From contig CM075994.1 in the NCBI GenBank assembly GCA_038087875.1, positions 4,280,001 through 4,344,000 of the forward strand: DNA of 64,000 nucleotides, written 5' to 3'. The notes under the pieces were generated by a model that was not told where the DNA came from, did no database searches, and saw only the letters and a program-made list of their open reading frames with translations. Every line of letters begins with the position of its first letter. The first letter of the stretch is position 1. The translations under genes and the position numbers were made by a program. This stretch comes from Malacoraja senta (taxonomy: Eukaryota). Shown piece by piece: positions 49,101 to 60,314 of this stretch.

Positions 49101-52100
49101 ACTATATAACTCTGTGTCTCAATATTGACTAGTTTCTCAAAATGAGGTTTAGTCCTTCCATTTGGATTGATGGTTCACATAATTCTCTCAGATTTTCACT
49201 CTATTCCTATTTTATATCAAAGTTTAAATCGCTTGCGAAAATAGTACGAAGGAATATTAGATCGTGATATCAATGCTGTTTTCACGCCATAAATTGGGCC
49301 ACAATACGTAATTCCACCATCAGATATAAAACAAACAGATTAATTAGTTGACACATGGAGAGCAGTGGTGGAACATCCATAAGTTCATAAGTTAATAAGA
49401 CATAAGACCAGCATTAAGCTATTCGGTCCGTCGAGTCTACCCCACCATTTAATCATGGCTGATCTATCTTTCCCTCACAAACCCATTCTCCTGTCTTCTC
49501 GCTGTAATGTTTAACACTGTTACTGATCAAGAACATTTCCATCTCCGCTTTAAAAACTACCCAATTACCACCTCCAGTCTATGGTAATGAATTCCACAGA
49601 TTCCCCACCTTCTGGCAAAATAAATTCCACCTCCTCTCCTATCTAAATGAGCGACTTTTTATTCTGTGCCCTCTGGTCGTAGACTCTCGCACTAATGGAA
49701 ATACCCTCGCCCCATCCATTCGATCCAAGCTTTTCATTACCCCTCAAACCTTTTAGTTTTACTAACGATGTACGCTAATTGTTAAGTGCAGATCAGAATA
49801 ATCTATGAACCTTCTTTAAATTCAATACAATAAACGAATACATATTTCTGATTTTAAAAGTCGATTTTAAATATTGCATTTCCGAAATCCTTCACCGCAG
49901 CCGAAATTCAAATTATGAACGACACTTCCTATTGTGTTACATTTTCTGCTTTGATCGAACATTAGCAACAATGACATTTATCTCTTGCCTTACAGTGAAA
50001 CAACTGCTTCACAAAAATATCGGTAAATGGGTCAGAAAAATTACACTTAACTTGTCCAATATTTTATTCTCGTCTGCCCTGTTAATGATTGCTGTAGTAT
50101 TTCTCCAGATCTGGTACAGATAAGCAAGTGATCGCGAAAGTGGTCAAAGTAGTAACTGTGATATCCAATATTTTCATTAATTTTGTTGATAAAAATCGAG
50201 TAACCATCAGCATCAATTAACAAATGTGGAACCTGATAAATAATATTGGAATATGCCAATGTCACCAGAGAGAATGTAACAAATAATCTCCTAAAATGGC
50301 ATCATTCTAGCAGTTTCTAACATATCCGCTCATATCACTCTAAATTCAGCATTGACTGCAAATCTCTACGTATTGTCATTTGCTTAGTTTTGTTTTTAAC
50401 CGGTAAGTAGTAACGATGTGAAAGGGTGCCGTAACTCCCTACTAGAGGGGTTTTTCTGAAATTTGCGAATTCCATTTTAATGGCTGAATTTGGAATAAGA
50501 TCCACCGAAAAAAGTCAGCACCTTTACATAAATTCATAAATTCACTAGTTATAGGAGCAGAATTAAATCATTTGACCCACCAAGTCTACTTCACCGTTCA
50601 TTCATGGCTGATCTACCTTTCCCTCTCAGCCCCATTCTCCTGCCTTCTCCCTGGCACCTGGCACTCTTAACAATCAAGAACCTGTCAATCCCCGCCTTAT
50701 GGATATCTGTTGACTCGGCCTCCACAGCTGTCAGTCTTTTCGCCCGCTTAATTTTAGTCAGGGGGTAGTTAATCTGTGGAAATTGCAAAAGAGGGCTGTG
50801 GAGGCCAAGTCGGTAGATATTTTTAAAGCAGATATAGATACATTCTTGATTTGAACGGGTGTCAATGGTTATGGGGAGAAGGCAGGTAAATGGGATTAGG
50901 AGGCAGAGATCAGCCATGATTGAATGACGGAGTAGACTCGATGGGCCGAATGGCCTAATTCTACTCCTGTAACATGTGTGAGATTGTGTGAATAATAGAT
51001 ATATTCGGAATTCTAACATCATCACATGTACAGCAATATCTTGGTTACTAATCGGAGACCGGGGGCATTTATTTAAAGAGAATGCGACAAGAGGTAAGAT
51101 TTGACGGTATCTTTCTTCATACCAATGGTAATTTTCCAATCTGCTTTAATTTGGCAGTAATGTAATATTGGAATCTTATAGTTTCAAGATCATGCAGCTG
51201 TTTTAATTACTGTAACTGAAAAAATTGCATTGAATCATTCTGCTGTGTTGTCACCTCGTATGCAAGTTAACCCAAACAGATTGGAACCGAGAAATGCATA
51301 CGCGCCATTTTATCCGAGCGTAAAGGTTGCTCAATGAGTTCAACAAAGACGAGGATGCAACGGCGTCGAGTAAAAATTCACCTTGGAAAAACTTCGTGCT
51401 TTCCCTTCGTACTTGCCCTTCTACTACCGCTGCAAAATATAGGATGTCTCCGTTTTCTGTAACTGCCAGGAAAAAATGTTTATCCCATTGCATCCGTCTT
51501 CGATTACCAAGTTACAAAATAGATTTAATGCAATATTCAGAACAGAGAGCATGAAGATAACATTTATGGTCATTCCTATTTTCTGGTTTCAGAGCAAGGA
51601 AATCTGGTCAATCAACTCAAGGAATCAGGTAAATCAAATTGCTTTAGTCGCTCGTCATTCGCCTTGAATTAACACGTCAAGATACAATTTTGAAGTCCTG
51701 TCAATTGAATAACACATCAGATTCGTTTCCTAACAATCTGTTTTCTTTGATCACACGATCGTAATATTCAGCCTATTCCGCCCACCTTTTCAGATTTTTA
51801 TATACATTTACGCAGGTATCTCGCACCCAATTTAACATTGTACAACAAAAAGAGCTGGAGTAACTTCGCTGGTCAGGCGGCATCGCTGGAGAATATCTCG
51901 GAGATGAATGGTCCCGATGGTCCTGACCCGAAGCATCACATATCCCTGTTCTCCAAAAACGCTCCCGTGCTGCTGACTAATTCCAGCACTTTGTGTACTT
52001 GTGTTTAAATTGGCATCTGCAGTTCTTTGGTTCCACTCTTCCCCCTTTGTGTAATGTTTCATTTCTTCTCTCATCCTGCTTAAACTTCAATTTGAAAGTT

Positions 52101-60314: not shown

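Follow-up and report, generated by a model that had tools for sequence, protein, structure and literature searches.

How a long series of very small exons, the common sizes of which are not multiples of a heptad, could encode a coiled coil, and to what kind of gene such exons would belong, are the questions raised by this locus of Malacoraja senta. The window analysed here is a stretch of 64 000 nt (GenBank assembly GCA_038087875.1, contig CM075994.1, positions 4,280,001 to 4,344,000 of the forward strand). In our judgement its small segments are probably true exons of a gene of ~165 kb, here termed gene C, encoding a predicted soluble, cytosolic, parallel coiled-coil rod of ~880 residues that likely grew by register-keeping tandem duplication of microexons. 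Loci are rare in which, as here, the agreement of exon duplication with coiled-coil register can be tallied across hundreds of exons that singly break the heptad.

All 12 of the 27- and 36-nt segments cited in the original prediction were recovered as AG..GT/GC phase-1 exon candidates, each with a pyrimidine tract and an AG before its start and an open phase-1 frame, and the donor was GT in every case except the exon at 11702, where it was GC. An untrained splice scan of the window found 18 candidates of 27 nt on the plus strand vs 3 on the minus strand, and over 464 kb the same type of scan gave 75 vs 3 at 27 nt and 28 vs 6 at 36 nt. A trained exon model, applied to the array zones at a score of 8, gave 445 candidates on the plus strand vs 30 decoys on the minus strand; as this model was trained on the plus strand it favours that strand, and it missed some exons and included some false ones. 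Between paralogues Z and B, compared over the 75 of 105 Z exons that have a partner at ≥70 % identity, the third codon position was in excess (143 vs 97 and 75 of 641 sites). The predicted exons of paralogue A were colinear across their junctions with the Narcine protein XP_069775384 (E=3e-18) and also with a Scyliorhinus protein, and a paralogue on contig C5 aligned exon by exon with Leucoraja P0157; these matches across junctions validate the exon calls. Contig C5 holds three shorter family members with B30.2, one of which corresponds exon by exon to a Leucoraja protein named ‘TRIM69-like’. Contigs of two DNA runs spanned the stretch with 0–2 differences per piece, a comparison that is not independent in so far as the runs possibly come from the source sample. 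The cited 27- and 36-nt segments are likely to be true exons.

The resolved set for the window comprises 30 plus-strand exons (17 of 27 nt, 6 of 36 nt, 5 of 24 nt, 1 of 30 nt and 1 of 18 nt). Every exon is of phase 1-1, so that copying or skipping any one of them causes no frameshift. The regular series begins with a 27-nt exon at 49996..50022, which starts at heptad position e and has Leu4 at position a, followed by a 36-nt exon at 51593..51628, which starts at g and has its residues 2, 5, 9 and 12 at a, d, a and d. It continues with a 27-nt exon starting at e (53152..53178), a 36-nt exon starting at g with Leu at 2, 5 and 9 (54817..54852), a further 27-nt exon starting at e (55342..55368) and a further 36-nt exon starting at g with Leu at 2, 5 and 9 (56900..56935), and strict alternation stops at a 30-nt exon that starts at e (58279..58308). 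Three other 27+36 pairs are found at 1393..2642 (1393–1419 and 2607–2642), 11702..12536 (11702–11728, with the GC donor, and 12501–12536) and 37344..38990 (37344–37370 and 38955–38990). Unpaired 27-nt exons start at 1168, 5373, 5613, 8528, 8719, 23447, 31891, 35633, 37150 and 47365, unpaired 24-nt exons at 25442, 26131, 35928, 40359 and 45755, and an unpaired 18-nt exon at 22626; weaker 27-nt candidates lie at 20626 and 36618. The gene runs on past the window from a last 27-nt exon at 60288..60314. Weak donors, namely the GC at 11729 of the 11702 exon and a GTTAGT at 8746 of the 8719 exon, are candidates for regulated skipping. As had been noted beforehand, all six 36-nt exons of the window have a 27-nt exon directly before them (3.4 on average in shuffles, p=0.019) and Leu at positions 5 and 9. 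A splice-signal-only scan of 47.0–60.4 kb for lengths of 9–60 nt returned nine exons, namely the seven cited and those at 47365 and 60288, three of them with alternative donors as well, and hence no extra exon breaking the 63-nt periodicity between 49996 and 58308.

The start of the window requires some caution with respect to assembly. A direct duplicate of 51.4 kb, 99.84 % identical, flanks a 200-N gap, and its second copy occupies window positions 1–6536, which hold the first five window exons, including the pair at 1393..2642; this is probably a false duplication. A similar duplicate lies around another gap, at an RBM4-like gene upstream of the cluster. Repeats make up over half of the region, and the introns at 15374–16130, 32272–34313 and 44100–44433 hold fragments that resemble reverse transcriptase and LTR elements, as named by eye. 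A broken CCCH zinc-finger sequence, presumably ZFP36-like, lies between genes A and B.

A register model bears out the arithmetic that 9+12=21 residues keep the heptad, and between 49996 and 58308 the register was unbroken, the 27-nt exons starting at e and the 36-nt exons at g. The same pattern was seen across the cluster, where the usual 36-nt exon runs from g (97/134 starts) to d and the 27-nt exon most frequently from e (130/270 starts) to f, so that 27+36 closes a three-heptad cycle. Among the remaining 27-nt exons the starting positions were g (42), c (36), b (26), a (21), d (9) and f (6); the preferred start of 24-nt exons was b (18/39). The hydrophobic power peak had a period of 3.5 in genes B and C and 3.6 in gene A. 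In B, C and the window the true exon order scored above every one of 300 random orders, and it also outdid swaps among exons of the same length (p≤0.013). Over the whole of gene C the register model placed 13 breaks (15.6 in shuffles), indicating that the rod is not one continuous heptad, and gene D had a register score of 42, with 30 shuffles reaching a maximum of 49.

Structure prediction was applied to a relative from Narcine. The homodimer model of P0004 (residues 10–205) scored 0.44 vs 0.02 for the best of three controls, and its runs had at least 34 % of contacts in common and pLDDT of at least 60. The mark used for this score is reached by 21/30 solved pairs and 0/23 single chains from microbes, and by 17/29 solved pairs (7/16 from animals) and 0/30 single chains from eukaryotes, although a coiled coil may pass it by likeness. 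The predicted dimer contacts at residues 117, 121, 124, 128, 131, 135, 138, 142 and 145 coincide with the a/d calls across what we infer to be a 27-27-36 run of exons. A single-chain model of the Narcine relative had a moderate pLDDT of 67, with four helices and a B30.2 domain. The dimer model thus supports a coiled-coil fold for the family, while binding by the window’s own protein is beyond its reach.

The original prediction held that the 27+36 pair is the unit of duplication and selection, and this stands in part only: the pair is the commonest building block and has in places been copied whole in tandem, yet it is only one module among several. Across the cluster, a 27-nt exon comes before 102 of the 132 36-nt exons (72.9 on average and at most 89 in 5000 shuffles), and 36-36 junctions are scarce (11, against 36 on average and at least 22 in shuffles). 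However, the commonest junction is 27-27 (120), only 102 of 269 27-nt exons come before a 36-nt exon, and in the window only 6 of the 17 have a 36-nt exon next, with eight 27-27 junctions. Other register-closing exon series exist besides 27+36.

Evidence for duplication of the pair comes from introns. In gene C, at +73 to +93 kb (9–29 kb past the window end), six tandem 36+27 pairs share intron sequence, one of the 27-nt exons having scored 7.9, just below threshold, and 21-residue two-exon tandem duplications with homologous introns were also seen in paralogues D and Z, with a period of ~800 bases in D. Among 38 nearest-homologue intron links, 13 had a two-exon period of 21 aa, representing ~4 independent arrays, one more was a single 21-nt exon, and 24 had a non-heptad period. 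Eight of the 24 belong to one recent block of gene B, of 8–9 exons and 78 aa (90 aa with an added exon), which is not a heptad multiple in the exon set used; some of the other non-heptad links probably reflect missed exons. A separate array at C18:3,132,000-3,165,000 has eight consecutive 36-27 pairs and a ninth 36-nt exon in strict alternation with no detectable intron homology, and continues upstream of the sequence examined.

Two expectations attached to the pair did not hold in the material analysed. The introns flanking the three pairs at 50–58 kb show no homology to one another, as 0/13 same-length pairs within 47–60 kb exceeded 99.9 % of the null; their 27-nt exons are identical at 12–15/27 positions and their 36-nt exons at 18–22/36, and these three pairs are old. 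Joint skipping of pairs had also been proposed, and none of five in-frame deletions in annotated isoforms of three relatives removed 21 aa. The deletions were of 6, 9 and 16 residues in Narcine, 9 in Scyliorhinus and 9 in Callorhinchus, all of which shift the register; these isoforms come from predicted gene models for shorter paralogues, and the count leaves out three alternative starts.

These results bear on whether the register has been selected at all. The 21-residue period could be a historical by-product, in which unequal crossing-over multiplied a single ancestral 27+36 pair and its register was simply inherited, a reading that we regard as unlikely, although it survives better than the other alternatives. 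It would fit with the frequency of tandem pair arrays, with duplicated blocks that are not heptad multiples and with the isoform models of relatives that tolerate deletions of 6, 9 and 16 residues. It does not account well for the 24- and 27-nt series, which also hold register, with the 24-nt exons preferring b, nor for a real exon order that beats same-length swaps or for the depletion of 36-36 junctions. We favour register-keeping growth, in which frame-neutral microexons would be duplicated in tandem and copies kept mainly when the block preserves the heptad register. Selection on the register of the dimer may act as the filter on duplications. The 27(e)+36(g) pair would then be the shortest common cycle, and other series summing to a multiple of seven could serve equally.

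The extent of the gene was considered next to its neighbours. In the stretches of DNA examined, 492 microexons were resolved (10 of 502 having been dropped as repeat-derived) in six blocks: an upstream block with 22, Z with 105, A with 36, B with 198, C with 86 including the window, and D, 1.3 Mb downstream, with 45. The microexon gene cluster thus extends over >1.3 Mb. A further microexon gene lies head-to-head with D on the minus strand at C18:5.52-5.61 Mb, with its first candidates no more than ~7 kb from those of D. We infer that the window lies in the middle of a single gene, C, of ~165 kb with ~86–90 microexons and ~880 aa, and its limits and exon joins are to be read in the same way. 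The gene likely starts with a 64-nt exon and then an ATG-bearing 132-nt exon, 17.7–18.8 kb upstream of the window, and appears to end at +145,045 (~81 kb past the window end) with a 10-codon exon and a stop, followed by two AATAAA.

It is improbable, and more so than the by-product reading, that B and C (perhaps with A) form one longer transcription unit with alternative last exons and rods of very different length. Strand and phase are uniform, and no other intact gene was identified between B and C, as such a unit would predict. However, Z and B have homologous short terminal exons followed by ~1 kb of 3′ sequence that is 70 % conserved between them, C has an ATG-bearing 132-nt exon of its own, and A is closed by a stop-bearing B30.2 exon. 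The last exon of D is likewise B30.2 (Pfam SPRY, 9.6e-12 for A and D). Separate genes, with C as the one that holds the window, remain the reading we prefer.

No B30.2, Ig, membrane or lectin domain was found in gene C. Between its last microexons and the gene downstream of the cluster, which we take to be NRM-like, a name that synteny backs, a search of 56 ORFs found no SPRY, lectin or other domain and gave one weak, irrelevant match. In the 5′ gaps of B and C, a Pfam scan of 130 ORFs found no Ig, RING or lectin family (177 were listed, the remainder being dropped as repeats or low complexity), and no leader exon was found 5′ of either gene. No transmembrane exon was seen by eye among the exon candidates 5′ of gene C, and a similar scan detects one in the true skate butyrophilin.

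These findings weigh on the proposal, which we consider very unlikely, that a BG/butyrophilin-type membrane receptor is encoded here, the exons being its cytoplasmic tail and those for the leader, Ig and membrane parts having been missed upstream or displaced by misassembly. In its favour, a phase-1 microexon heptad tail, a tandem array and an MHC site are features of BG in the available sections of PMC5938342 and PMC8813856, the B30.2 of paralogue A finds its best PDB match in BTN3A1 (E=3e-24), and an N gap with the false-looking 51-kb duplicate lies just upstream. On the other hand, the 130 ORFs gave no Ig, the cluster DNA that was checked contained no IgV motif, no leader exon was found before B or C, and the Narcine models start with Met-Ser and have the coil directly after. 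A leader-like, hydrophobic start in Leucoraja P0157 was considered as a sign of a secreted protein and rejected, as this start is the 3′ end of an intron upstream of a microexon. The start of chimaera P0067 resembles it. Three hydrophobic ATG exon candidates 5′ of gene A, vs two in reverse-strand controls, were taken as chance. A soluble rod remains our favoured product. Finally, it is scarcely credible that the segments are chance or decayed pseudo-exons. Z, B and C each showed one stop codon in conceptual proteins of ~3,280 residues in all, but against this stand the asymmetry between strands, the spikes in exon length, the bias at third codon positions and the colinear matches to proteins of three other species.

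The relatives of the family were traced by way of B30.2. That of gene A matched proteins of Narcine (65 %), Scyliorhinus (49 %), Leucoraja, Cetorhinus and Callorhinchus, including a coil-plus-B30.2 protein of 1,697 aa. In a quick tree of 153 rows, which were the top matches of one query, the 12 family rows formed one side of a branch (SH-aLRT 100); outside this clade TRIM and Ig-bearing rows intermixed, and the tree does not favour butyrophilins over TRIMs as kin of the family. The B30.2 clade of the paralogues spans chimaera to rays. The B30.2 exon of the true skate butyrophilin (C2171) and that of a TRIM beyond PPP1R18 have upstream intron sequence in common and fall in one clade, hinting at a recent BTN–TRIM exon exchange. 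No RING or B-box was found in the five relatives scanned or in the cluster DNA checked, and no Ig in the same five. Among 2825 candidates there was no longer homologue of the Narcine coil, and no orthologue of the gene C protein was found there. Matches in the ESM Atlas to the chimaera coil and to the NRM-like exon were all under 0.9. A search of the literature, with subscription papers and bioRxiv supplements outside its range, found no description of a microexon rod family.

RPS5 and PPP1R18 lie downstream of the cluster (by Pfam). In the section of PMC10751288 that lists the sawfish MHC, the order is phostensin, rps5, a RING-finger-225-like gene, nurim, 962 kb without genes, an uncharacterised locus and then RBM4B-like; the words butyrophilin, TRIM and B30.2 do not occur in the main text of that paper. 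MDC1 is given as the mammalian neighbour of NRM in the relevant part of PMC4753418, and no resemblance to MDC1 was seen on inspection without alignment. The 962-kb gene-free gap on the published sawfish list would, on our reading, be filled by several giant genes. Such genes were likely missed by annotation because nearly every one of their exons is under 40 nt.

The rise of a coiled coil is 0.15 nm per residue, and from this value the product of gene C may be a cytosolic parallel dimer ~125 nm long. By analogy the protein might act as a free butyrophilin/BG intracellular tail, as a dimeric spacer or scaffold, and of all the steps proposed we are least sure of this one. In the paralogues with B30.2 this domain would be a head for ligand binding, and C and other members that have no head could act as rods or pair with these paralogues. 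We offer as a tentative and wider proposal that this is a megabase-scale, unannotated MHC family of cartilaginous fish, in which a butyrophilin-type tail has been freed and a heptad grammar is written in non-heptad microexons (27 nt at e, 36 nt at g, 24 nt at b). Headed and headless rods of ~350 to >1,800 residues would be paired by register, and duplication or skipping of pairs would tune length and partner.

CD23 has a 21-residue repeat with one 63-nt exon for each, and forms a membrane-bound trimer whose head is a C-type lectin. The likeness of the window to the CD23/FCER2 stalk, suggested in the original prediction, proved superficial: a heptad coiled coil is common to both (for the stalk, in the relevant part of PMC6791321), whereas no membrane anchor or lectin exon was found in gene C. 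The closest parallel is instead the butyrophilin/BG tail. Chicken BG, as described in the available sections of PMC5938342 and PMC8813856, has a long coiled coil encoded by dozens of very small exons, each beginning with a split codon, lies in a tandem same-strand MHC array, changes copy number by exon gain and has no B30.2. The family of gene C also has a heptad tail of phase-1 microexons in tandem, same-strand genes near the MHC, and gene C too is without B30.2. However, BG exons are of 21 nt (one heptad, with a few of 18 or 24 nt) and follow leader, IgV and membrane exons in those sections (PMC5938342, PMC8813856), whereas the skate exons are of 27, 36 and 24 nt, the common ones not being heptad multiples, number 86 to ~200 per long gene and come with no Ig or membrane exon that we could find. 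A soluble BG tail (‘zipper protein’) affects actin–myosin (same sections of PMC5938342 and PMC8813856). The skate family would be the cartilaginous-fish counterpart of the BG tail.

The true skate butyrophilin (C2171) has phase-1 tail exons of 33 and 27 nt and then a phase-1 B30.2 exon; small phase-1 tail exons are thus a likeness, as is the B30.2 of paralogue A, closest in the PDB to BTN3A1. The rods differ in that no IgV-IgC-membrane part was found, the tail is 10–100 times longer, the B30.2 of the family forms its own long-stemmed clade and gene C is without one. PMC12841164, in the sections available, covers only Ig-bearing butyrophilins. With TRIM-B30.2 proteins, paralogues A and D and the relatives share a cytosolic coiled coil plus B30.2, and database names of the relatives include ‘A33-like’ and ‘TRIM39/58/69-like’, but the coil of the true TRIM nearby is encoded by large phase-0/2 exons rather than phase-1 microexons, and in the five relatives scanned there is no RING or B-box. 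The rod departs from BG, BTN, TRIM and CD23 in at least one tested feature each. The skate rod is a variant, new in the literature searched, of the BG/butyrophilin-tail type.
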